A DNA stretch of 63,348 nt, filler included. It is 12 parts of 12 records of this genome, joined end to end, with 100 filler letters (N's around TTAATTAATTAA, not from the genome) between each part and the next. Parts side by side here need not be neighbours in the genome. Positions count along the whole stretch, not along the records: positions 1 to 8,739 come from SRR15195285_2372; 11 more parts are not named here. One strand, written 5' to 3'. The notes beneath the pieces were generated by a model, which was not told the origin of the DNA, ran no database searches, and was given only the letters and a program-made list of their open reading frames with translations. Made by a program: the position numbers and the translations under genes. Within the stretch, counting starts at the first letter, position 1, and the number at the start of each line of letters is the position of its first letter. Below are positions 1 to 53,512 of the stretch, in pieces.

Positions 1-669
1 TACGTGTGCTAACACTGCTATATTATCTACGCTGTTGCACACTAGATCTACTAGTAGCGCATATGAACTGTACCCACACACCTTGACAACGCGCGCCACC
101 GCCGCCACTCGCGCGCCGGCGTGGCGCGCGCCACCCACGCGCGCCGTCGCGCGCGTCTCAGATGATGCATGTGTTACATGCACGAGTCCTGATTTCCAGA
201 CAGTGCTCAGTCTGAAGCTTTGCAATTCTGTGAAATCCAGAATCAGAACTCAGAATCACATGGAATTTCAATAGTGATTTTTCCGAATCAAAATTTTACA
301 TCAATACGGAGAAGCAAGGTCGTACTCGAATTCGGAGGTCATCCGTTCTGAGCCAAGTCCAACTGCCACGCCGATTCCGCGTATGTCTCGCCGGCGGCGT
401 ATCTACTACGGCTGTACCGGTACAGTACTATACTGTATGTAGCTAGCGCGACGCCAACGCCTAGCTCGGGAAGGGAGCGCTCCCACCGAAACGTTGCCGC
501 GGCACGGTGAAAGACCGAACATGATCACACCTTGTTGACTAGCACAAGTTCGGCTGACATGGGTTCGCGCGCCGGCCCTCGTTGAGCTCGGCACCGGACG
601 CGTCGTCGAGTCGTCGTTCTCGGAGCTCTAGACTGAGAAATATGGCAGCGTGCGCAGAGTAGTGTCAAG

Positions 670-3600
670 ATGCCGACAGCGGCCGGCACATCGTCGCCTG
701 TCAAGAGACAGCGCACCAGCGAGACCGGTGATGTGTCACCGGGAGGACCCGCAGCAGTTGGCCGCGCACGGCCATCACGGGAGGAGCTGGTGCGCCGCAA
801 CGCCGAGCTCAAGGAGAAGCGCAAACGCATTAAGGAGGCTTCGATCGCGCCTTCTGGTAGGCCGGGCAAGCCAGGCGCCGTGCCGCCTGCCGCACCTGCT
901 GCGTCGGCCGCGGTTCAGCCACCGCCGCTGCCAGACGCACCGGTGGCACACTCTGTTCCGAAGCAGCCTGCTCCGGAGGAGGGGCTGCCACCGCCGGCCG
1001 GCAGCTCGTCCATCGAGGAGCAGGTTTCTGCGCCGCGGCGAACGGACAGCGCAGGCCTGTCCGACACACGACAGGAGCCGGAGCTGGAGCGTCTGGCAGC
1101 ATCTGGGGCCTCCAAATCAAAAATGGAGCAGGTAAAGGGACGGCTGTCTCCGCTTGCGATTCCAGACACGGACCCCGTAGGGATCACAGCTGAGTTGTCG
1201 TCTGCGGACGGCAGGCCCGAGTTGCCATCGCCATCTCTCTCCGGCACGCCAGGACCCCGCAGAGGCTCTGCTGTGGCTGTGGCACTGAGCGAGCCGGGAC
1301 GAAGCAAAGCTCCTGGCCCGCTGCTCGAGAAGCTGCACATCAAGGTACGGAAGCGGACGCAGAAAGAGAAGGGCGGTGCGGTCGGCCGCCAGTTCACCGA
1401 AATCGCCAGAAGTCACGGTCAAGATACCCTCGCCCAGTGCCTGAAATCAGGAGACGTGGTGCTTGAGGCCAGGGTAGAAGGCCAATCACTCGGTGTTTCA
1501 CCACGGTGGACAATTGAATTGCCGAAAAACGTGGAGACGATCAGGAGCATGAAGGAAGAGATTGCAAGAACGGAGGCAGAACGTTCCGACGGGGCATTGT
1601 CCATCCCAGTCGAGGAGCAGCTTTTGACGTTCAAGGGCAAGCGACTGCAGTCGGACCATCACTTGGCGGATCCTCGCTATGGCATTCAGATCGAACCTGG
1701 GTCAGTACTGAGTTTGACACAGAAAAGCCTGCTTCAGATTGCGGAGGAACACAGAATTCAGGAGGCCGAGCTCAAGACGAAGGCAAAGTCGCGGAAGTAC
1801 CTCAAGTCCCTTTTCGAAATGATCAGTGGTGTCGGCGGGCAGACTGTCACTTGGCAGCAGGTCTTTGAACACGTTGCCGGAGAGATGAATCAAGGTGTGC
1901 GTGTCGCGCTGAATCTGAAGCCTGCAGTCGACGAAGAGTACAGGAAGGAGTTGCAAAAAGTTTTCTTGTCAAATGACGATGACGATGTGGATTTTGAAGA
2001 GTTTGTTAAGTGCATGCATCAGCACTTCGGCGATTCCATCCACGGTGGTCGTACGGCAGAGGGCCCTGCTGTGGTGGCTTTGCCCCCAGCAATTGCTGCG
2101 AACCCCAGGGACCCATCGCTGAACTTATTCAAAGCCGCTTCCATGCGAAAGGCAGAAGGACGTCCGGATCCAGAGTGGCCAGACTGGAAGATAGATCACA
2201 GACCACCGTCTACGCCGAACCTCTTGCTGAACAAAGCGACCGAGCGCCCAGGCGGAATTTACGCAGAATCTGTACTTGGTGCAAACGTCGCCTGTCGGAG
2301 CGTCAGCGGCCCGGGCAGCAGCACGCCAGAGCAGGCTATGGGCGACCCGAAGCGCTGGGTGCTTGCTTGCCGAGAGCAGATCACAGATGGTGCAGATTGT
2401 CCAGATCAACTTCAGGAGGACGCGCTTCGCAGCATGAGTGTGGACGCACTGCGTGAGTTCTTCGAAACACGTGGTATTGATGTGTCAGATTGCCGTGGAG
2501 TTGCCGAGCGTGATATGCTGGTTGCCCGTGCGATCGTGCTTGTGCATCGCGATGTGGCCACTGATGACGAAGCAAAGCTGGAATGTCAGGAGACGAATGG
2601 CTCAGGAGAGAGGCCGCCACCACTTCCGATTGATCCTGCACTGCTGGTGGACAACATGGGAAAATTCGCTGGAAGAGGTAGTGCACCTGACCCACAACCC
2701 GCGGCTGCTATGCCAGAGTATGACCTGTCTGATGACGTCCCTGACGATCTTCTTCATGCGTCTTGTTTCATGTTCAAGCAATCCTCGATGATTCGCATTG
2801 CATGCCTGGAAATCGTTCAAAGTGTAGTTTTCGAGTTTGTTGTGATCTGTCTTATCGCTGGTAACTCGGTAGTGCTGGCAATGTACGACCCGCTCAACCC
2901 AGACTCAGAGCACAACGAGGACCTCGAGAATATTGGCCTGTACTTCACGGCGATCTTTGCGGTGGAGCTGGTCTTGAAAGTGATTGCGTTTGGTTTTGTT
3001 TTCGGCGACAACGCGTATTTGCGGACGCCCTGGAACGGTTTGGACTTCATTGTTGTTGCAACTGGCATGCTGGACTTCATTCCTGGCTACGAAAGTCAGT
3101 TTGGGGTATTACGAACGGTTCGGCTGCTCCGTCCGCTGAAAACCATCACGACCATAAGGAGCATGCGCGTTCTAGTCGCATCTCTTTTGAGCGCGCAGAC
3201 GATGAGGGGCATCATAAGCGTGTGCACGCTGCTTTTTTTCATGCTGGTGGTGTTTGGCATAATTGGGGTGAATTTCTTCAGTGGCGTTCTGCGTCAACAC
3301 TGTATCAACATCGACGGTCTGGACGTCCTCGACCAGATCTGCACACCAGACTCAAGTGGCCGACCATGTGATGCAGGCCAATACTGCTCGCGCGTTGATC
3401 CGTTCACTGGGTTAGAGTTCGACAATCCCGAGTTTGACCTTGTCTCGTTCGACGATTTTGCCATGGCGAGCCTCACAATCTTCACCATGTTGACTCTCGA
3501 AGGTTGGACTGATGTGATGTACAGCATTCAGGACGGTTTCTCGCCGTACTCTTGGTGCTTTTTTGTGCTGCTCATCACCATGGGATCTTTCATCGGCCTG

Positions 3601-6600
3601 AACTTGTTCCTTGCTGTGATTAGCTCCGGCTACGAGAACGTCGTAGACCAGCAGGACGAGGCGCAGGCACAGACAGATTACGCCAGAGAATGCATGTCTA
3701 TGATCACTGGGGCGGTGTATGAGTCGATCCACCGTGACGTACTGCCCACACCTGATACAGACGCGAAACAAGACAAGAAGCTGCCGATGCGACCAGGTGA
3801 CACTGTTACGCTGACAGAGGATGCAAAGAGGAAGTATTCATTAATCGGTGTGGAAATGGGCAACCTGCGTGCTGGACCAACTGGCTGGCGCACGGGCAGA
3901 ATAGTAAACTTGGGCCCAGGCAATCAGAGAGCGCGGGTGGACGTGGGTGTGCAGCCAGCGATGGCCAAAGTCAGTCGGTATTACTGGTATGAACTGTCGG
4001 AATTGCGGGTTTTGGATCAATCTGACACCATGGACGACATCGGCGATGACGATCTCGATGACAACCCACTGAAGCCATCAGACCGCGTCATACAGGAGCG
4101 CGTCAAGAATTTTTTCGAGCTCTTCGCCACTGACCCTAACGGCGGTATGGATGGAATCATTGAGCGTGATGAGTTCTCGCAAGGCCTCAAGCAGCTCAGC
4201 ACGGGGTCGGACGACAAAAGGATAGAAGACAGTGTGTATATCAAAGATGACGTTGTGCGGACGCTACTTAGGCTGCTGACGGAAGAGGGAAAACATGGCC
4301 GTGAGCTGCAGTGGCAGAAGCGGAATATCGCGTTCATGTTTGATGCCATTGACGACAGCGGCAACGGACTCATCACTCAGGGTGAATTCTACGCTCACTT
4401 TATGGACCCTGAGAAGTGGCGAATTGAAGAAGAGGAGGTGCTGACGTGGGGATCCCTGTCTAATGACAAAATGAAAGGCGCACCTGCTCGCTACGTGATG
4501 GAGCAATACTGCAAATGGCTGGTCGGCAAGAGTTGGTTTGACACGTTTGTGTCCATTGTTGTACTCTTCAACTGCATCGTGCTATCATCCGAGAGTGCTA
4601 ACATGGGTGACACTGAGAAGTCGGTTCTGGACGCCCTCAACCTGTACTGCACAATCTTCTTCGTTATGGAGATGGTGTTAAAGCTTTTCGCTCTCGGTGT
4701 ACAGGCCTATTGGTCCGACTCTTTCAATCGTTTCGACGGGTTGATCGTCACACTAAGCCTGGTGGAGCTCTCGATGCCAGGAGAGTCCGGAGGCCTTAGC
4801 GTCTTCCGAGCGCTGCGCATTCTGCGGGTGTTCAAAGTCACCAAGAGCCTCGGCGACTTCAAAAAAGTGCTCGTTACTATTTTCTCAGTCCTGCCGGAGC
4901 TGGGAAACTTCTTCGGGTTGCTTTGTCTGTTCATTTTCTTCTTTGCAGTTTTAGGCTTGCACCTGTTCGGTGGCACTTTCGGCACGCTGGAAGAATATCC
5001 TCGCGACAACTTCGATACATTCGGAACCGCTCTGCTGACAGTGTTCCAGATTCTAACAGGTGAAAATTGGAATGCAGTCATGTACAACACGATCGAGACG
5101 AACGGCTATACTTCAATTGTATATTTCATCCTGGTGGAGATAATCGGAATCTACATGCTACTGAATCTGTTCCTGTCTGTTCTTCTGCTGAAAACCATGA
5201 GCGCATTCCAGCCCGATCGTGGCGTGCGGGACGATATTCTCTACCGCGCGAAGAAGCTGAAGACCAAAACTGACCTGAGTGCATATGCAGCGCCCGAGGA
5301 CGAATTTGTGCTGGAGTCTAAGTCTTTGTTCATATTCGGCCCAACGAGTGGCATCCGCATGAAGTTGAAGGACGTTTGCGCGAATCCTGGCTTTGAGTTC
5401 TTGATTTTGATGTGCATTCTGATCAGCTCGGCCGGGCTAGCAATTGAGGAGCCTGGGGCCTCGCAGCAGGTCAAAGATCTAATCAAGACCTCAGATTACA
5501 TCTTCACGTCAATATTCACATTCGAGCTCGTCATCAAGGTCATCACCCTCGGGTTTGTACTCGGCACGCAGCATGCCTATTGCAGGAACCCGTGGAACGT
5601 CCTGGATGGATTTATTGTGGCAGCCAGCTTGGTGAGCCTGATTTTCGAGAATAACCCTCAGGTTTCGGAGCTGGGCTGGGTAAAAGGTCTTCGGGTTCTC
5701 CGGGCGCTGCGGCCGCTTCGCGTTATCAAACGCGTCCCAGAGCTTAAGATGGTCGTGAACAGCTTGTTTCGGTCGGCACCTATCATTTCAAACGTGTTAG
5801 TACTGTTGACGATGTTCTGGCTAGTTTTCGGAATTCTCGGCCTGCAGCTTTTTGGAGGCAAGCTGTACTTCTGCGACGATCCTCTCGTTGTTTCCAGAGA
5901 CGACTGCGTTGGGACGATGTGGACTGACTGCGCTGACGAGGTCTCTGGGGTTTGTGTTTCTGGTGTGCAAGAACGCGTTTGGGCTGCTCCCTCGGGCTGG
6001 GGCTTTGATACCATGCCACAGGCCGTTTTGACGCTCTTCGAAGTGTCGACTCTGGAGATGTGGCTCGACATCATGTTCTGGTCTATAGATGCACGTGGAA
6101 TCGGGAAACAGCCATTTGAGAACTACGATCAGTCTGTGGCCGTTTTTTTTGTACTGTTCATTAGCTTTGGCTCCTTTTTCCTGCTCGAAATGTTCGTTGG
6201 TGCAATCGTAACGTCCTACAACATGTTGCAAGAAGAGAGCGAAGGTGGAGCCTTCCAATCAGAAAGGCAGAAACAAGCTGTGGCGAAAATGGTCCTGCGC
6301 AAGAAGGACGATGTATTCGAAGCGACCTACGGGTTCCAAGAACCCCTCCACAAAGTTATGGTTGAAAACAGCCTTGTTGATAGCCTCATATCAGGGTGCA
6401 TTGTTTTGAACGTCCTCGTGATGGCGCTTTACTTCTACGATATGTCTGAAGAGTACGAGGGAACGCTGGACATGTTCAACGACATTTTCACTTTCATTTT
6501 TGCGACCGAGATGATTTTGAGGATGGCTGCTCTCTTGCCGGGCCGGTACTTCAAGTCTGGTGCCAACTCGTACGACTGCTTCGTGGTAATCGTAACTATG

Positions 6601-8500
6601 GGCGAGTTCATCTACAAAGCTGCAGCGGGTGGAGAGATCCCAGGCGCTGCTGTTCTTCGCGTCTTTCGGATAGCAAGGTTGTTCAAGCTCATGAACCGCA
6701 TCAAGTCTCTCATGGACCTAGTGGTCACTATTTCGACAGCAATCCCTACCCTTGTGAACGTCGGATCAGTACTGTTCCTTGCGTACTTCATTTTCGCAGT
6801 GCTCGGGATGCACCTATTCGGCACGGTCAAGCGTGGAGAGTTCTTGAACGAGCACGCAAACTTTGAGACATTTGCGAGGTCCTTGCTGACCACGTTTAGG
6901 ATGTCCACGGGAGAGAGCTGGAATGGGATCATGCATGATTGCCAAGTTGCGCCCCCGCATTGCACCCTTGGGGAGAACGGTGCCAGCGGCGACTGTGGAA
7001 ACCCGATTATTGCGCCAATTTACTTCGTACTGTTTCAGCTCATCGGCCAGTACATCATGCTCAACCTGTTCATTGCTGTAATGCTTGAGTACTATCAGCG
7101 CCAGCAGGATTCTGTCAACCCTTACGTTACCGAGGAACAAAAGGAGCAGTTCGATGACCACTGGGAGCGGTTTGTTGGTCGTGATCCAGTTCACAACGAG
7201 ATATACCCTTTGTTGCCGGCCCGTTTATTCGATGACTTCATGACATTTCTTCCGGCGCATATCGGGTGGTCTTTAAAGGAGAGACGAGAATCAGAGATGA
7301 AGCGAAAGGCGTTGCAGCAAGGTATGTCCTTTGCCCGTGGTACTCTGGCAGCATGTGCACTGCACGTCTATCTTGCCTGGCTCACTCTGAAATTTATCGC
7401 GCGTTGCCACCTCTTTGTTTTGCAGCTCCGTTACGGGATCTGCCTCTGCGTTCAATGCACACTTTGATCCCTTGGCGACTCGGAATGCCAAGAAATGCAC
7501 CTGATCGTTGGGATCGCGAACATGAAAGACAGCTGCAGGAACAGGATCGCGCGGAAGCAGCTGGGATTCCCACGAAAAGAGTCACACAAGCCGCGCTAGG
7601 TGTTTCTTGGACAGCTCGCATGTCGCACTCTATAGTCGGCGCTGCTGGAGCCTTTGTGCCAACGGCGGCGAAGCACGGCCCCTTCGATGCGCACAACGGT
7701 GACGATGAGGATGAAATTGATGCTGAGAACAGGGAGAAGGCCCGCGCACTCAAAGAACAACAGACAACGACATCTACCGTGGAGCAGCATTACTACCATA
7801 TGCATGAAGTGTGGCATTGCCTTTACAACCGGACAGAGACCAGCCACTTGCGAGACCCGGACAACGACGAATTCAAGAATGAGGATGCGCGCAAACGCCA
7901 AATCTCGCTCTTTGAGTCACTGATGCAGACCTCGCAGGTGGAGCTCTACCAGGCGGTGAACGCTGACATTGACAACGAATGCTGTGCTCGACTCCAGGTG
8001 CGCTTACGCAGGACTACGCTTGATTTTACGCTTGTAATTTGTACCTGACGTGACTTGCTGAATTGACGTCGTGGTGTTCCGCAGCCGATGGAAAAGGCAT
8101 CCATCGGAAGCATCAACCTAGTGCATGCCGAAGCAGCCAGGGTCATTCAGAGGGAGGCGCGCTCGTACCTTCACCGGCAAGCCTTGCAAAACGTGTTCGG
8201 GGGGGGGGAGCTCGCGGTGCAAAAGGGATGCACGCTCAAGCACAGAAGTCGATGAAGAACGGGGCGTACGAAGACGCCGCCAAACACCTGTTCTCAGCGT
8301 ACTCGTTGGAGGTGCAAGAAAGAGCGAAGAGGGAGGAGGAATTCGTGGAGCTTCGGCAACAGGAGAAGGTGCTGCGCGAGAAGGTGGAGGAGCTTGAGGC
8401 CGAGAGAGCCAGGCTAGTGAAAGCGGGTGGTGGCGCTAGCAAGCCGGCCACCAAGCAAGCTCTGCTGCGTGCCTCAGGCAGAAACAGTCCCGCGGCGTAG
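670..8500 (+). CDS. Four-domain voltage-gated calcium channel alpha-1-like subunit (EEEE filter) with N-terminal ubiquitin-like domain, EF-hands and C-terminal IQ motif; exons about 670-7321, 7426-7997, 8085-(8255 or 8500)
   Basis: The 2265-aa ORF has four 6-TM repeats. S4 sensors: LRTVRLLRPLK, FRALRILRVFK, LRVLRALRPLRVIKR, LRVFRIARLFK. Pore motifs: TLEGW, TGENW, TLEMW, TGESW. GT-AG introns 7322-7425 and 7998-8084 keep the frame and yield AARVIQREARSYLHRQ (IQ-like). The 3' end is ambiguous because of a G10 run at 8199-8208. Confidence 0.93.
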
Positions 8501-8739
8501 CATGAGCAGAAGCATAATGAACTGTCGAGTGTAGGTTTCCAGATGTCTGAGCCCTGCGGGTACTCGGTCAGTGCTCTGGGCTGGGTGGTTTTGAGTGAAA
8601 ACCAGAGGGTTCGGCCCCGTGGCGACACGGGGGCGAGTGAGCCGAAGCTCGGTGTCGTTGCTGCGCTTAGAACTCCTGCGAGGCCGAGCCGCCCTTGCGC
8701 CCTTTGCTTTTCGGGAGCAGGACGGTGTGGATGTTGGGC

Positions 8740-8839
8740 NNNNNNNNNNNNNNNNNNNNNNNNNNNNNNNNNNNNNNNNNNNNTTAATTAATTAANNNNN
8801 NNNNNNNNNNNNNNNNNNNNNNNNNNNNNNNNNNNNNNN
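8740..8839. other. Artificial contig-joining spacer (N44-TTAATTAATTAA-N44)
   Basis: Identical 100-nt block with stops in all six frames; 11 copies in the window. Confidence 0.99.
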
Positions 8840-8858
8840 CGGCTCAAGATCAGCAGAC

Positions 8859-33391: not shown

Positions 33392-36300
33392 TGTTGGACT
33401 TGCGTAGTAGCAGAATTACTCTGCGCGCATCAAACACAAACCTCAATGACAGCCAGAACGCAAGCCAGGCAGGCCCGTCAAAATTTGTTGCAACGCAAGT
33501 TAGGCATTACCCGTTGCCCTCCAGGTTTGAAACGTGTGCTGTGCACTCGCCTACGCGTCGACCAAACTGCTCTCCACCAGCAACAGGTACACCGGCACGC
33601 AGCAGAGTGCCTGTGGACAGCAACACGAGCTCAGTTCGATGCGAGCGGCGAACATTCGCCACAGATCATTGCGCGGCATACCGGTCACAAGACAGAGTGC
33701 TGGCTCGTCTGGCACTGAACCATATGTCGCAACGAACTTTTCGTTGAGCTCTGTGGCTAGTTGATCGTATCGTTCAGGCAACTCGACAAGGTGCTGCCCG
33801 ACTAGCGTGGACTTCGTCAGTGAGGATCTTCCTCTCGGCTGCAGACCAAAGCGCACGGCGCGTGTTGTGTTAGTTGCGGAGTCAAGCTGGCGAGAATGAC
33901 AACTGATGCACATGAGGTAGACTTGCCGGTGGATCCAGTGGCCATGGAACTGGTGAGTCAAGTCGAAGGCCAGACATCAAGCGAGTTGGTGAGGAGGGTG
34001 GGGCCTTGTCATCTGGAGATGTAGCTGCGCCGCTACCACCTGGCGTCATCCGTCTGGCGGCACACCACCTGGGGCCAGGCAACAGTGCTTTCCATTAGCA
34101 GTTCATACCAGCACCAGCAGCCGGCGTGGGGTGTGCACAACTTACGCCTCGACGGCCGGGCGGCAGGCCTGCACCAATGCTAGCTCAGGCTCAGGCTGAT
34201 CCGCGCAAGGGGCCGACAGGCCCAATTGTCCCGCGCACCATGCGTATTCATCTTCGACGGAGCATCCGATGGAAGGCAGGTCGTCGCCTAGACGCAAAGC
34301 GACGTGGCCCACCAGCATGATCGCCCGACGCATGAAAGGCAAACATAACTGCCGCAACCTAGAGAGCGTTAACGGTTTCCTGCCATCACCGCCCATGGAA
34401 CAAATCAGCGCGGGCGTTTCACCATCAGACACCGCTTGCTCCTCGTCCATAGCTGCATCGTCACCGCTGCTTGCTGGACCAGGTCCGAACGTGGCTTGCA
34501 CCAACCGTACGACAAAAAAGCAGCGCGCAAGATTGAGCAGATCAGCTCGGGAGGTAGCATGAACAGCGGCAATTGCGAGTAGACGCAATGTGTCTGCCTC
34601 CAGGATGTGAGCTGGAACTCCTACGGCATTGCGGCACGACACTAAATTCGTGGGCTTGACACTGAAGGTCTTTCCATCGACCAGGCAAACGAATCTGCCT
34701 TTGTTTTCGTCGTGTTTCTCGATCTGACCGCGTTGACCGTTGAGTGGCATAGCTGCCGAGCTCCGAAGTCCATGGATTAAAACCGGCTCTCCCACTTCGA
34801 ACATCTGGCTGGTCCGAACGGACGCATTTCCTTGCCACGCAGATGCACCAGTTGCAATTCCACACCACCCGTCGCGAGGGGCGCCCCGCATCAAGTCGAC
34901 GAGCTGGACACGGATCCAGTCCATTAGGGGTTCTGGGGCAGACCTTAAGTGTGTGGCGTAGGCCCGAATACCGTCAAACATCGTACGCATTTGCCGCAGC
35001 TGCAACTCTGGCCACAAGGGTGTGGCGGCGCCGCCATCTGAAGGCAGAGCTCGACACATATCTCTAGCCTCTATGCTGTAGGCAATTACCTCGGAGCCAG
35101 CTTGTAGCATTGTCAACACGTTCTTCTGTGCTGGCGACCCCTTGGCCAGGTCGTACAGAGTGGACAGCATGCGCGCCACGTGCTCCGTCGAGCACACGCC
35201 CGCATCTAGAGGAAAGGTGTCTGTGTCTCTGCTTGTGTCGTACGCAGTCTCGACTGCTCCTAGGAGCCACGACGCCACACCATCTGGAGCCTCTACAGTC
35301 GCTTTGGTGGCCACAGCTGCTGCAGCACGAACCGATGCTGCCCCATTTATAACTGCTGGTACCAGTAGGTTGCAGATTGACTTGCATACAGGGCTAAGAA
35401 ACTCTCCACGATCGACGTCGATACTATGCATACCTTCGTACGGTTGGTTCTGTTCCATCTTGTCCACTAGTGTAACGTAATACGTGTCGTACCGGTCGAA
35501 ATGCAATGCATGCCCGTAGAAGTGCACGCATACCCCACCGCGCAAAGGTGATCCTGACGCGACGCAAGACCGCTGGGCAAATGCCATCATGCCGACCAAG
35601 CGGTCAGGTTGAGACACCTCATGACTGAGTGCACAAGTTGGCAACGATGCTGCATCGTCTCCCCCATCTCCACCATCTCCAGATGCGGCGGCTTCAGTTG
35701 CCCCAGTTTCTTCGTGTGGGGTGACTGTACTGACAAGCGCCATATCGTCTTCGTCACTGCTGTCGCTGTCCATACCCGCCAAGAAAGACATCTGCATTTT
35801 CTGCATATCCGCCATGGCGCGTCGCTGAGCTTCTTGTTTCAGCTGCTTCCTTTTCTCTTCCAAAGATGTTTTGTTGCTCGGAGAAGATGCCCCAGTCACG
35901 CGTCGAAGTTTTTGTTCGCATTCAGCATCAGCTGCGACCATCTCCGCAATGATCCATGCGGTTGCTTCAGCGATACTCGGATTTTCCTCTGCAATTTGAG
36001 TCTGCAACTGGTGCAGCAAAAGCAATATGCATGGAGTACCGTCCAGTGGATCAGCAGCAATAGCGGCATAAAGCGGACGCCGCCCTTGTCCGCCTTCTTC
36101 GGGCAAATACTTCTGACAATGTACGGCCATGGTCAGCAGCTGCAGTGATGAATCGATGATGCCATCAGTGACAGCAGCTGTCGATGGTTTTCCGGGGAGA
36201 GCACTGTCCTCGCCGGCTGACGAAGAGACAGCAATTGCTGACTGCAGCACCAGTCGCCACATGCCCACCATTGCAGTCGCTTCAAAAATTCGGAACGATG

Positions 36301-39145
36301 ACGCAAAGAACTCGTGTGGCTCACTTGGAGCCTGCACACATGGTCGAGGCTGCTGCAAGTCTCGAGCCTTCTTTCGGATCCCTTCGATCCAATCGCGCGC
36401 TTGCTCGTGCTCGTTCCGATTCAAATGAAAGTAGTGCGGATCATACTCCAACACGCTCGCCTCGCGAAGTACGTATCTTCCAGGCTGCATTGGATCAGCA
36501 TTCTCTTTAAACTCAGCCACCGCGGAAATCTCGGCATCGACTTGCTCCGGACTGAAAAAGTCACTCTCGACCATAGTTTGCCGGCGAGCAATCCGTGCAC
36601 ATTCCGACAGCCGAGAGTGACTGCAGCCAGCATCCCCAACGGCACAAAGTCTATGGAGCAACTCTCGCCGCAGGCCAGTACTTGCAGGCAAACGTGGACT
36701 TCGTGGCAGTTCGTTTATGATCTGAATGATGAGCACCAGGCATTCTTCTGCCAATGCTTTCTGGCTCTCATACGATAGCTGAGGTGGTCCATCATCACTA
36801 TCAGTCGCGGGTGCTCCAGCTACCCACTCTCGAATACCAAACCGATCGAACAGGGCGCCCAGGAAGTCATCCGGCTTGACTCGAGCTGCGCCAAGCTGTA
36901 GAACGGTGAGGTCAAGATCGGCCATTAAAACACGGTTGTTAGTGCCAGCATAGTTGACTGCTTCGTGTGCAACCGAGGCCCCGTTCCGTTTCCACATGCC
37001 AACCTGGACTTGGGCAGCGAACGCACTAGTGCGCAGCGGGTGCTCTATCAACCGGAAAATCTGCGCGTCGCATGCTGGACCATCGCGCAACGAAATGAAC
37101 GTTTCAAACAAGGAATGTGGCCCAATGCTGTTGGTTGAACTGATACATGTGGAGCTGCGCCGTAGCGCAATTGCCAGGGCCCGAGAGAGCGGCAAGTGAA
37201 ATGTCACCGGCTGAGTGGCGACATTGTAGGGTGCACCCACTGTTCCATCCTTCTCAACCCACGCAGTCAGGTGCTCGAAACAGACGGCGCCGACTGTGCG
37301 CATTGCAGTCACACGAGCTTGATCGTCCTCAAGCTTATCTATCGCGCCGTAGATTGCTGAGAGGATATCATGTGACATCTGAGTCAACGACCATGTGAGC
37401 TCAAATGCAGACACCCAATGCTCATTCTCGTACTCTACATGAGCTCCAGCTTGGCGTGTTTCTTCTGCTACACCTTGCACGAGCGCTAATGAGTCGCACC
37501 AGTAGCCCAGCAGCTCCGGCCGAGATACCAGCATCATTGGCATCGATGCATTGCAGCGTAGTACGTGCACCATGTCTTGGACTATGTGCCGGTAGCGAGA
37601 GTGCCTGAAGCAGTGATGCGATAAATCCAGACTTCGTCCGGTTTCCTCTGAACCATCGTCAACTGGCGCTTGGGTGGCTTGGAGCATGTCCCTCAGCGAC
37701 AGCAGCAGTGTGCCCAACACATCTGTCTCTTCCTGGAGTATCGGCAACATCGAGGGCACGGTTAAAAGTTGCACCGCAAGCCCGAATACCGACTCCTCTT
37801 GAGTGCCGACCCCGAGGGTCCAGCGGGTGTTGATTGCACGATACGATCGCACAAAGATCAGCCCGAACTGCCGCCGAAAGGCTTGATCATCTTCCGCGGC
37901 AAACAGCGCTAGGTACATGTCGTGCAGGGCCTGCACTAATTTCACGTCGAGCAAGTCGTTGTGCTGCACCAAGGCCAAGAGGCCGACTGTTTGCTGTCCT
38001 GCTGTAGGGTAGTGATCGAACTGTTCGAGCAACGCGTTGCCCGCCAGTGCTGCCAACTGCTTGGACGTCTGCACAACGCGGTGAATCCACCCGACAAGCA
38101 CCACGGCAATGGCAGACCGCTTCGGCAGCGCTGCCCAGCGTGGCGCGACCGACACGAGCAACCCCTCCTCCCGCAGCCCGTCGACAACTGGCCTCGCTGC
38201 CCCTACGTCGCCGCTCCACGCGTCTGCGCTGCCAGCGTTGTGCACGCTGGTGGCAATCTCACGAGCAGCCTGGGCGTGGAGAGCGGTCTCTGCAGCGCGA
38301 GCGTCTACCCGCGGAAGCGCGTGCTGCTGTAGCGCATGGATCACGTCCTCGAATGTGTGCACGTCATCATTGTGCAAACGCACCCTGAAGCTGCTGCGCT
38401 CCGTGTCCCCGGGGCTCTCCGGTGTCACTGGCGCCCCCCCAGCGTCGCGGTGAGCCTCATCCCAGCTGTCTATCGCGCCAGGCGCGAACGACCGCGCGGT
38501 GTCCGACAGAAGGCGCAGCGTAAAGCCGAAGCACGCGCGGAAGAGTTGCGATGCGGCGTCTGCCACCGGCGCCGGCAGCTGTGGCACTTCAGTCGTCTGC
38601 TTCTTGATGCCACGCAAGATGGCGGGGGCGCTGGGGACCCATGCCTCCGGGTCGCCGCCGTCGCAGCAGCCACCGCGGCCGCTCGAGGAGTAGAACGTCA
38701 CCTCGTGCCCATCGTGCGCCTTCGCGTCGAAGCAGCGGGCGCACATCACACAGGTGGGGTCGACGCCGCACGTGCTGCAGCGGTAGACGATCTCGTTCGA
38801 CGAGAACAGCCGGCCGCAGCGCGTCTGGTCGCTGCCCTGCGCCAAACTCGCGAAGAAATCCGCGGGCTGCACAGCCACCGCCCCACCCCCCGCGCCAATA
38901 CACAGCAGCCGGTCCAGCGCCGCGCACAGCCCAAGGTTCTCCGGCTGCAAGAAGGACGGCTCCGCCTCCGCCAAATCGTCGAACGACGCAGGCGACGGCC
39001 GCGCACCCAGCGCAAGCAGCCGCTCCGCGAGCTCCCCCACCCGCGCCACAATCCCATCGCCGCCGCCGCCGCCGCCGCCGCCCTCCTCCGCCAGCAGCTC
39101 GGCCAGCTTGCGGACCATCAGCGTCGACTCCTCCGCCATCGCCAT
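33392..39145 (-). CDS. UBR1/UBR2-type N-recognin E3 ligase homologue (UBR box, ClpS-like N domain, degenerate RING-H2, C-terminal domain); 3'-partial
   Basis: UBR box CGRLF...YRCSTCGVDPTCVMCARCF...HDGH...GGCCDGGDPEAW; ClpS-like LHNDDVHTFEDVI; AVQLLTVPS; HVEYENEHW; VTFHLPLSR; GMWKRNG; EYDPHYFHL. Later exons HLVELPERY...EPALCLVTG and GECTAH run to the contig edge. Confidence 0.92.
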
Positions 39146-49761: not shown

Positions 49762-52700
49762 ATGATGTTCGGCGGCGGCGGGGGGGACGATGCGGACGGC
49801 TTCCGGCTGGTCAATCTGTTCTCGATGCTGCAAGGCGACGGCGGTGGGGATGGGAGCGCGACGTTGGAGTGCAGCTGCGGCAGGGAGTTTGGGGAGTACA
49901 TGCGCCAGGCGGTGCAGGCTCCGTTCCCGTGGGATCCGGCTGGCCCGGTGCGGCGGAGCGTCACGACTGTCTGGCGAGGGCGGCGGCTGCGCGTGCTCTT
50001 GGAGCCTGGCGGGGAGTGGCACCCGGGGCGCGTGATAAAGTTTGAGCAATACAACAACGGGCCGTTTCATCGAGAGACGCTCTGGTCCGTGTCTGTGCGC
50101 TTCGACGATGCGGCTGTTCCCGCCCAGTTGACTGCACCGCAGCCGGCTGCGACCGAGGCGCCGCGTGCCGAAACTCAGGGCGACGAACGTATTTTTGCCC
50201 ACCAGACAGCGGAACAAGCAAAGGGCACCATCTACAGCCTGAGCTACCGCGAGCTGCAGTCCAGCTTGAAGGAGATGGGACTTTCTGCGCGCGGCCGAAA
50301 GGAGGTGCTTGCCGACCGCATGTACGAGGCATGGCTCGAGGATGCCGAGGCGGAATGGGAGGAACAAGACTTGGCTGCGGCCACATCAGCAGCTGCGGAG
50401 CAGGAGGCAGCTGCGGAGGTGGAGCGAACGGCGGCGGCAACTGAAGCAGTAGCCGCCCGCAGCCGCAGCCGCAGCCCGAGCCCAAGTCCGCGCGGGAAGC
50501 CCATTCCCCCAGTGGATTTTCAGTTGATTCGAGCAAACGTGCACGTGGGCGGTACACTGACGGACCCACGACCGGACAAGGGTGGACTGCTGCTGTCGTT
50601 TGAGTGGCTAGATGCGCCCGTCCCTGACTTGAGCCTCGGAGATGGCGTGAGCTGCCCGACATGTCGACAGGTACAGCCTCCGACGGCGGGAGAGGACGTC
50701 GCTCCGGAGGCTACCTGTGTCGGGGACTGTCCCATCTGTCTAAGTGAGGCGCAGGACTGCCTGAAGCTGCACTGCGGGCACGTGGTTTGCTTATCGTGCT
50801 GGAAAAAATGGGAATTCGTTGGCACACTTGCAGGCGAGGGGACTGACGAGGACGACCGTGGGCCGGATGAACCTGACGGTAGTGAGCTGAGCCACGAAGC
50901 GCTGGAGGCGGAGCGCAAGAGGCTGTATGACGAAATGGCCCGACGAACACGCGAAGCGGAGCATACCGACGGTGGCCAAACAGTAGGCGATTGTCCGCAC
51001 TGTACCAGGTTGACCGACATGGTTAACGAAACCATCGCTCGGATGGAGGATGACGACAGCGGTAGTCGCAATGGTCTGCGCAGGCATAGGCGCAGACTTC
51101 TGACTGAGCCGATCATCACGTCGATGAGTGATCACCTCCGTGGGCTTGCATTGCGCTATGGCTCCATAGGGGTGCTTCAGGTGTTCGTTGAGGTTATTCC
51201 TCTGCGCGAGGCTTGCATCGCTGCTGAAATTGAGCGTAATAGAGACGGCAGCCAGCCCCCGAAGCTAGACGAGCAGGGACGAACGAGGGTAGTCAATTCG
51301 TGGATGAAGTCTTTTTGCTGCAGGATCGGCGAGTTGTACGAAGAGCAGGGCAAATACTCAAGTGCGATTCCGTGGTACAAACGCTGCTGCTCGATTTCTG
51401 CCCTTTGCCAGTGGGAGAGTGGAGAGCACTCGAGCGACTTGTCCAACCTGGGCGTGGCACAGAAACGAGCAGGTTTGTTCGTGGAGGCATTGGCTTCATA
51501 TGACAAAGCGATAGCCTTGCACCCAGGGAACTGCGACATCGCAGTGGCCAATAGGCAGACCCTGGTGCGGGAGATGCGGCACTGGACTGGCACAGCAATA
51601 GAGTACGACTTTGACGATGAAGTTGAAGACGGCATTCGGGAGCGCCTGAACGCGGCATCGCCGCCATACGAGCAGCTTCCATTTGGCTATTACAGCAAAG
51701 AACAAGAACGAGCCCTGCCGCACCATCGATTGCAGGCAGCCAGTGCTATGAAGGGCACGCATTTGCTCCTCTGGAAAGTCGTAAAGCGTGTGACCCACCG
51801 CATTCCGCCGCGGGTGATTCAATTCACAGCGACCGCGGGTGCTGTCATCTTGGTTGTTGGCCTTGTCATGTGCATCGTTGTTCGAAGCGTGGACGTGTTT
51901 GTGTTCAACGAATGGTCGGTTTCTAGGGCGATCTTTACTTCCACGGTCGTCACAGGTGCACTCGACCCGTGCAGTTTCGACTGTGCGTTGTCGATTTACT
52001 GCGGCCTGCCATCTGTTCGCAACCGCATCGACATGACGCACCTGACAGAGGTGCATAATGTTGTGGCTGCCATGAAAATTTCCATATGGCTGCTACATGT
52101 TGTTCTGCCACTGTGCTTGCACTGCATGCAAGTGATTGCCATATTTTTTGGCAGTCCTCACTTTTTCTCGGTACACCATATCTTGGTGATGGCAAACTTC
52201 GGGGCAGTCTTGGCGTTCTGTGTCGCCATGGTTCGTCTGGCTGTACAAACTCCATGGCGACTGGCAGCAGGCGCGCATGCTGTTGCGGGTGCATTGGTGA
52301 TATTCTTACTCATGAAATGTGAAGGAGATATACTGATGGGAACACCGACGCTGGCGTGTGGCAGTGAGTCAGGTGGAGAGGATGCACCTGGAAGCTGCGT
52401 CGCGCTGCTCACGGGTGCGAATTCAGGGATCGGCTACGCAACTGCGTACAGCCTTGCTGCTCAAGGTCACACAGTTCTGCTTGCGTGCCGATCGCAAGTT
52501 CGCTGCGATGCGGCTGCGTCTTCAATCGTTGCTGCGCTAGGTAGTTCTACCGAAGAGCGGGTAGTGTCTCTAGGAGGCCTTGAGCTGTCATCACTGACGA
52601 GAGTGGAGGAGTGGGTCGCCTCACAAGAAACCACGCTGCCCAGAATCGATGTGCTGTTCTTAAATGCTGGGTTTTTGCCCCGGCCTGGGGAACAGACGGA

Positions 52701-53512
52701 GGAGGGCTACGAGGCTGGCCTGGGGGCGATGCATTTCGGGCACTGGGCACTTGTTGAAGGTCTCTGCACGGGACGCATGCTGGCGCCAGTGTCCCCGCGC
52801 GTCGTTGTTATTTCGTCGGACGCGCACCGCATGGGTTCGTTTCATTCGTCCCTGTTGCAAGGTTCAGGGGAGGGCGACTTGCGAGGAGAGCTTACAGCCG
52901 GCTGCCCAGGCGACCCAGGCCAGCCGGTTTGCGCGCAGATGCAGTACAGCGACCACGGATCTCTTTCGCAAGAAATGCCCACGAAGTTGGTGGGAGGCGG
53001 CGCCTACGCTCGTGCAAAGCTTGCAAACCTGCTGTACGCGCGACAGCTTCCAGTGGCTCACAACGGCTGGAGAGCTACAAGCGTGCACCCGGGCATGGTT
53101 TACACGCCCATGGCGGAGCGGATCGCGCGGCCCTACGCGTGGATGCAGTTTGGGATGCAAGGGGCGCAACAACTATTCATGCGGGCCATGTTGCGTCCGG
53201 CGTCTGCTGCAGCGGCGGTGGTGCTGCATGCGGCGAAAAGTCTAGAAGGGAACTCGGCTGCCAATCGCCACTTTGTCAATGGAATGGTGCGCCCCCTTCA
53301 GTCGCTGCAACGCCCAGTGGTTGCAGGTTGCAGCCTCGTTTGCGACTTAACGAGCCCGCGCGCTTTGCAACTTGTGACACAATCAGGGCGAGGTTCTCGC
53401 AGACGATGGCGGCATGCTGCCGGGCTCGGCGCTCGACGACGTCGTTGCCGCCCGACTCTGGGAGGTAAGTGACGCGGTGGCTGCAGCGGCAGGCGCAAGC
53501 GGGCAAGCATAA
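49762..53512 (+). CDS. Multidomain protein: SAP + RING-type zinc finger + TPR + TM bundle + short-chain dehydrogenase/reductase (retinol dehydrogenase/WWOX-like); intron 53287-53386
   Basis: SAP LSYRELQSSLKEMGLSARGRKEVLADRM; CPIC...CGHVVCLSC; TPR SNLGVAQKRAG...ALASYDKAIALHP; SDR TGANSGIG, LNAG, YARAK, VHPGMV. The spliced last exon gives AARLWEVS...*. Confidence 0.82.

Follow-up and report, generated by a model that had tools for sequence, protein, structure and literature searches.

Flagellates and animals owe their fast behaviour to four-domain Ca2+/Na+ channels, whose regulation attaches at the cytoplasmic ends of the protein. The closest described systems are the alpha-1 subunits of animal Cav1, Cav2 and Cav3 channels, with four Ion_trans repeats, a pore Glu in each domain (the EEEE rule: an acidic selectivity ring to which each pore loop contributes one Glu), charged S4 segments, a C-terminal IQ motif, and a I–II linker that is the beta-subunit binding region. 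We know of no animal channel with an N-terminal ubiquitin-like (UBL) domain, an N-terminal EF-hand-like pair or SAP-like motif, or an EF-hand pair in the I–II linker. Each of these elements has parallels elsewhere: in RAD23, DSK2/ubiquilin, UBL4A and BAG6 a UBL lies inside a larger protein and has no processed Gly-Gly end; built-in EF lobes with typically degenerate loops belong to NALCN, Nav, Cav and TPC channels; and SAP domains (PF02037/PF23632) consist of a helix, a Gly-containing loop and a second helix. Here we describe a gene in which a divergent UBL, an EF-hand-like pair and a possible SAP-like motif precede a Cav-type channel in one reading frame. It lies at the start of the window, i.e. 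the whole stretch of DNA that was analysed (63,348 nucleotides, 12 parts of 12 records joined end to end), in the part derived from SRR15195285_2372 (positions 1 to 8,739).

In our judgement it is fairly probable that this is a real picozoan gene for a four-domain EEEE Ca2+ channel, whose N-terminal tail, with its UBL, would form a built-in docking or regulatory platform. A single plus-strand open reading frame (ORF) of 2265 codons spans positions 670–7467 and opens at the first ATG past a stop; it encodes about 700 stop-free residues ahead of the channel, and its first exon contains the entire N-terminal tail plus all four channel domains. By the usual topology of such channels this extension is cytoplasmic. 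A preliminary description, made from the letters alone, had placed ubiquitin-like, EF-like and SAP-like peptides upstream of domain I in an uninterrupted frame, and every peptide that it quoted was found in the translation of ORF 670–7467. Short ORFs on the minus strand or in other frames within 915–2791 were set aside, as they lie inside this long conserved frame. The features of exon 1 are the following.

670–7321 (+): exon 1 of the channel gene, codons 1–2217 plus base 1 of codon 2218 (ORF and translation)
769–810 (+): RPEL-like motif RPSREELVRRNAEL, residues 34–47, with a basic stretch after it (alignments)
1450–1725 (+): divergent integral UBL, residues 261–352 (PF00240 and family profile)
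1726–2049 (+): connecting helix (residues 351–386, from the model) and EF-hand-like pair (about residues 365–460)
Residues 386–397 and 434–445 (+): EF-like loops SGVGGQTVTWQQ and SNDDDDVDFEEF, respectively (translation)
2050–2400 (+): linker predicted to be disordered, residues 461–577, with a predicted local distance difference test score (pLDDT) of 25–32 (alignment A3)
2425–2544 (+): SAP-like helix-loop-helix, LRSMSVDALREFFETRGIDVSDC...LVARAIVLV, residues 586–625
2755–7321 (+): channel body, four Ion_trans repeats (Pfam PF00520, E 2.7e-220 in four stretches)
4351–4386 (+): canonical EF-hand loop DDSGNGLITQGE in the I–II linker, residues 1228–1239, second hand of a pair

The channel body starts with domain I right past HASCF (residues 696–700). 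A pore-loop Glu is present in all four domains (TLEGW, residues 942–946; TGENW, 1463–1467; TLEMW, 1794–1798; TGESW, 2080–2084), the same four motifs being carried by two full-length relatives, P0002 and P0003, and the sequence of each domain shows an S4 segment in which every third residue is Arg or Lys (residues 814–833, 1379–1394, 1674–1689 and 1996–2014). Among solved structures the nearest are Cav2.1, Cav1.2 and Cav3.2 (E 1e-174 to 1e-172), and the protein is about equally distant from these three animal Cav subfamilies. Ranked by E-values only, with no tree, the matches in the PDB run from Cav (1e-174 to 1e-160) through Nav (about 1e-145) to NALCN (about 1e-92), and the listed matches to animal Cav structures are restricted to the channel body. 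This body is, by its sequence, a Cav-type four-domain EEEE channel, with predicted gating and Ca2+ selectivity; the likeness to animal alpha-1 subunits extends to a predicted C-terminal IQ motif. Its I–II linker carries an EF-hand pair at 4087–4404 (residues 1140–1245), of which one loop, DDSGNGLITQGE, is fully canonical and invariant in P0002 and P0003; the linker fragment matched Pfam EF-hand_6 (E 5.4e-4) and EF-hand_7 (E 0.0079), and the relative P0009 also has an EF-hand_6 match (E 8.2e-4). The same linker holds a conserved beta-rich segment, PGDTVTLTEDAKRKY...RYYWYELSELRV, at 3775–4014 (residues ~1036–1115), with a faint SH3_9 match (E 0.077), and an insert resembling this segment, with a faint KOW match, occurs in the N-terminal tail of the relative P0006.

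For the UBL, Pfam PF00240 matched the homologous place in all six members of the family, scoring 23.5 bits (E 4.7e-5) with the window fragment, 23.7 for P0006, 22.4 for P0009, 19.7 for P0002, 17.4 for P0005 and 12.9 for P0003. Searched against a PDB library of 177,635 sequences, the window fragment alone retrieved ubiquitin and UBL4A at E 0.008–0.03, and a six-sequence family profile (A4, cleaner than the profile A2) reached mono-ubiquitin (2gbr_A, E 6.1e-6, profile 18–88 on ubiquitin 12–74; 7f0n_A, E 2.5e-4) and di-ubiquitin (E ~3e-9). Of 332 matches to A4, the 60 best comprise nothing but ubiquitin, fusions or variants of it, and UBL proteins; for A2, ubiquitin or UBL likewise make up the whole of the top 60 of 165. 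Language-model neighbours of residues 255–355 included clusters carrying PF00240 (score 0.89), which counts as a lead only; with the whole tail, the same kind of search returned only a match of 0.80 to an EF-hand cluster, under the useful range. At the level of sequence, the ubiquitin likeness is real and beyond chance. As the preliminary description had also noted, the Gly-Gly end is absent: past ...SVLSLTQKSLLQIAEEH the UBL passes directly into a long helix, and it is therefore an integral domain and not a conjugatable modifier. RAD23, DSK2/ubiquilin, UBL4A and BAG6 share this arrangement and are among the profile matches. Unlike theirs, the UBL of the window sits in a membrane channel, some 260 residues from the N-terminus, carries Thr at the place of ubiquitin Ile44 in 6/6 members, and stays under the Pfam cut-off.

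Past the connecting helix, an AlphaFold model computed from seven sequences reaches pLDDT 69–82 over the EF-like part, with five helices and two short beta bridges (model residues 175–176 and 222–223). When this model was compared with 48,161 representative chains in VIA, 46 of the 50 listed rows fell on the EF-like part, and the rows read were EF-hand proteins (Z 5.2–6.7): AtCBL2 and the CaBP1 N-domain at the top (Z 6.7), followed by S100s, troponin C and centrin. Channel domains are matched as well: the model aligns over 81 residues with the C-terminal domain of NALCN (7sx3_A, Z 6.2) and over 91 with TPC2 (6nq0_A, Z 5.9); by sequence, EF-hand proteins in the PDB were found weakly (E 0.4–2.4). 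An EF-hand fold of the tail pair is likely but not certain on the strength of this model. A canonical 12-residue Ca2+ loop has an acidic position 1 and Glu at position 12. In loop 1 the place of the final Glu is taken by Gln, by Glu (P0002), by Arg, or by a preceding Lys (P0009); loop 2 is acidic, the window sequence has one residue too few, and in P0009 and P0006 the loop ends in Ala or Gln. We read the pair as a structural EF lobe and not as a conserved Ca2+ sensor. It differs from the EF domains of NALCN, Nav, Cav and TPC channels in its N-terminal position before domain I, and in its coexistence with a separate canonical EF-hand in the I–II linker. A complex prediction of this lobe with the predicted IQ segment, run without controls, scored 0.00 and gave no answer.

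The SAP-like motif follows the disordered linker. The window segment matched PF23632 (RNF34/RFFL SAP) at E 0.053, over profile positions 4–48 of 50, and PF02037 at E 0.055; PF02037 was found under threshold in all four aligned members, at best with E 0.0025. AlphaFold places helices at residues 591–600 and 613–638 (pLDDT 56–81), and the model matches the SAP domain of PIAS1 (1v66; Z 5.3, root-mean-square deviation 3.3, 52 aligned). In the PDB, a profile of the segment retrieved no SAP protein; its only matches were to repeat and ankyrin-like proteins and are put down to chance. The assignment is plausible but weak. The predicted order of helix, Gly-containing loop and helix is that of SAP domains, whereas the loop is longer, varies in length among the relatives, and stands in a cytoplasmic, membrane-adjacent context.

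How far does this tail extend beyond a single assembled sequence? With HMMER, residues 240–700 had just four matches at E<=0.001 among 1.84 billion representatives, one of them (P0007, E 1.1e-11) discarded as spurious, being a low-complexity tandem-repeat protein. Word-seeded searches of 5.8 billion clusters led to P0002, P0003, P0005, P0006 and P0009 (P0008 is a fragment identical with part of P0009), and scans of metagenome contigs with profile A4 and with P0009 did not find the locus. P0002 and P0003 are 80% and 60% identical to the window protein over residues 240–640. In P0002, P0003, P0009 and P0006 a single protein holds the tail together with the beginning of domain I; P0005 stops short of the channel. 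Conservation is block-wise: identities in the five relatives are 77/91, 60/91, 65/89, 40/88 and 28/72 in the UBL, and 90/114, 74/113, 82/117, 51/109 and 39/102 in the linker, whose motifs LPPAIAANP, PDPEWPDW, PGGIYAESVL and AMGDPKRW are still recognisable in the most distant relative (36–40% identity). Nearer the N-terminus, the RPEL-like motif is kept in P0002, P0003, P0005 and P0006; RPEL motifs of animal proteins bind G-actin, and the Pfam RPEL model gave E 0.34 in the window and 0.13 in P0005, both far under its cut-off. Of the 21 cluster members listed, drawn from three sources (ENA, JGI and Logan), 15 are full-length (2213–2285 residues), so this layout does not stem from a chimeric assembly. 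The lineage is assigned to Picozoa because the cluster listings name Picomonas judraskeda and Picozoa sp. COSAG01 for two fragments.

What might such a tail do? The UBL may offer a protein–protein interaction surface, to which either a partner or some other cytoplasmic region of the channel itself would bind; the EF-like lobe could be a structural or peptide-binding module and not a Ca2+ sensor, and the short conserved motifs of residues 461–577 may provide additional contact sites. Jointly, these modules would set the location, lifetime or gating of the channel, and Ca2+ feedback would more likely pass through the canonical EF-hand of the I–II linker and the C-terminal IQ motif. With a tail that is specific to the lineage and includes a domain derived from ubiquitin, the regulation of protist channels would have taken routes unseen in animals. 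Picozoa are small marine heterotrophic flagellates, abundant and uncultured. Their striking motility is summarized as "jump, drag and skedaddle" (PMC3608682). A Ca2+ channel could plausibly set off these movements. The main text of the genome paper on Picozoa (PMC8599508) contains none of the words "channel", "ubiquitin" and "calcium". In the titles and abstract openings of the literature searched, no channel with a UBL built into it came up, a search that included no domain-architecture search for independent fusions. The suggestion of the preliminary description that this architecture is undescribed is supported, with a divergent UBL, an EF-like pair and a SAP-like motif within the ORF of an EEEE channel, and with tail and channel connected in four relatives.

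Several results weigh against this reading of the tail. None of the six members reaches the PF00240 gathering cut-off of 25.4 bits. AlphaFold gave an unusable model from the single sequence (residues 240–477, mean pLDDT 37.7), and from seven sequences a pLDDT of 32–44 over residues 261–352, where a beta-grasp is not confident; on the fold check proposed in the preliminary description, this is a model of low quality and not one that contradicts a beta-grasp. In the EF-like part, Pfam EF-hand models had no match at E<=10 over residues 356–467, loop 1 lacks the acidic Ca2+ ligand pattern in 6/6 members, all VIA Z values are below 8, and Foldseek with the 483-residue model had no PDB match at E<=0.001 (best E 0.075). 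The SAP-like segment, at 13.6 bits, reaches neither the SAP cut-off (23.9) nor that of RNF34/RFFL SAP (27), and is degenerate in P0006; the docking or regulatory role itself is one that we infer. The low Pfam scores and the uncertain model would suit a ubiquitin likeness due to chance or composition, with another fold or none in its place. This is very improbable given profile E-values of 6e-6 to 1e-3 against single ubiquitin domains in the PDB library, best 60 matches that are exclusively ubiquitin or UBL with two profiles, the same place found in 6/6 members, and a low-confidence seven-sequence model that nevertheless keeps its elements (strand, strand, helix, short strands) in ubiquitin order. 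The transcripts leave room for a different objection, namely that the tail is absent from the mature channel because translation starts downstream or the transcript is shorter, so that the upstream frame is rarely or never translated. In-frame Met codons are available at residues 663 and 679, contigs cannot reveal transcript starts, and no RNA contig covers positions 2611–2900, hence none links tail to channel. RNA-library contigs do cover positions 1017–2297 piecewise, and a 269-nucleotide contig from a poly(A)-selected metatranscriptome is identical to positions 1623–1891; the 20 listed sequencing runs each hold less than half of the sampled words, and 17 of the 20 are recorded as RNA, from marine samples. 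Some of this material may be DNA or pre-mRNA, since contigs of the same RNA libraries cross the second predicted intron of the gene without splicing. With regard to the transcript check proposed in the preliminary description, no downstream start or splice was seen, and no contig bridges positions 2321–2900. What supports a single polypeptide is thus the frame, which is open from the first ATG, conserved block-wise at the protein level down to 36–40% identity, and shared by tail and domain I in four relatives; together with the contigs over the tail, this makes a channel lacking the tail decidedly improbable.

Accepting that the UBL is part of the channel, could it be read by the ubiquitin system? 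Ubiquitin receptors (Rpn10/Rpn13, UBA, UIM or ESCRT adaptors) might recognise the built-in domain and so tie the turnover or sorting of the channel to that system, with a possible Ca2+ dependence conferred by the EF-like pair, and if they do, this would be a new tie between ion entry and protein turnover. The nearest solved relatives are ubiquitin and the proteostasis UBLs (UBL4A, RAD23B, BAG6 and DSK2), not beta-grasps of the RA, PB1 or FERM type, and the Gly-Lys aligned with ubiquitin Gly47-Lys48 is invariant in 6/6 members. Yet the usual recognition surface of ubiquitin is the Ile44 hydrophobic patch, which is polar here because Thr stands at the place of Ile44, and Thr or Ser at that of Val70 (the residue past the last aligned strand position), in all six; loop 1 of the EF-like pair has no acidic ligands, the final Glu of loop 2 is lost in P0009 and P0006, and no partner was identified. 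This makes recognition by ubiquitin receptors unlikely, and the coupling of Ca2+ entry to the ubiquitin–proteasome system, which the preliminary description had put forward, gained no computed support. A self-tag, in which the attached UBL would be read by the proteasome, ESCRT or endocytic adaptors with access gated by the EF-like lobe, so that Ca2+ entry would set the removal or sorting of its own channel with no E3 ligase step, is quite unlikely. By analogy with the nuclear fragments of animal Cav channels, the tail or a cleaved fragment of it might instead signal to the nucleus. KRQR and KEKRKRIK would then be its nuclear localisation signals, and DNA or chromatin would be bound by the SAP-like motif. 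The basic clusters (residues 12–15 and 48–55) are conserved, and the SAP similarity, under threshold as it is, comes with the PIAS1 fold match. The evidence for SAP is weak, though, the other Pfam match being to the membrane-associated RNF34/RFFL variant; the motif degenerates in P0006, neither a cleavage site nor evidence of DNA binding was found, and a nuclear role is scarcely to be expected. A docking or regulatory platform at the cytoplasmic face of the channel is the reading that we retain.

Downstream of the four domains, the gene model continues over two predicted introns.

7322–7425 (+): predicted intron 1, 104 nucleotides, GTATGT...TTTTGCAG
7426–7997 (+): predicted exon 2, C-terminal cytoplasmic region, with an in-frame, stop-free translation once spliced
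7998–8084 (+): predicted intron 2, 87 nucleotides, GTGCGC...CCGCAG, in phase
8085–8500 (+): predicted exon 3, with the IQ motif AARVIQREARSYLHRQ at 8133–8180 (ORF 8063–8500)

The donor of exon 1 is AAG|GTATGT at 7321|7322, the three nearest relatives part from the window protein directly after KALQQG, and removal of the putative intron 1 connects the frame with ORF 7266–8048. Excision of the putative intron 2 would take out the stop at 8046–8048 and preserve the frame; against it, RNA-library contigs of two runs (X1, 7944–8311; X2, 7928–8128) cross the site unspliced. No RNA joints were seen across positions 1–8700. In predicted exon 3, a run of ten G at 8199–8208 breaks the frame, and the assembled version ends at a stop at 8253; the contig of run X1 is two letters shorter at 8199, and with two fewer G the frame would reach 8500.

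Elsewhere in the window, a long ORF on the minus strand (34142–39145) corresponds to a UBR-box/ClpS-type N-recognin E3 ligase, and another on the plus strand (49762–53472) to a protein with RING, TPR and short-chain-dehydrogenase parts; no link of either to the UBL of the channel was shown. Shortly 3' of the gene, the gap at 8741–8840 consists of N runs with TTAATTAATTAA between them. Upstream of the gene, positions 114–331 are covered by high-depth RNA-library contigs that diverge into unlike sequence at several points, and look like a dispersed repeat.

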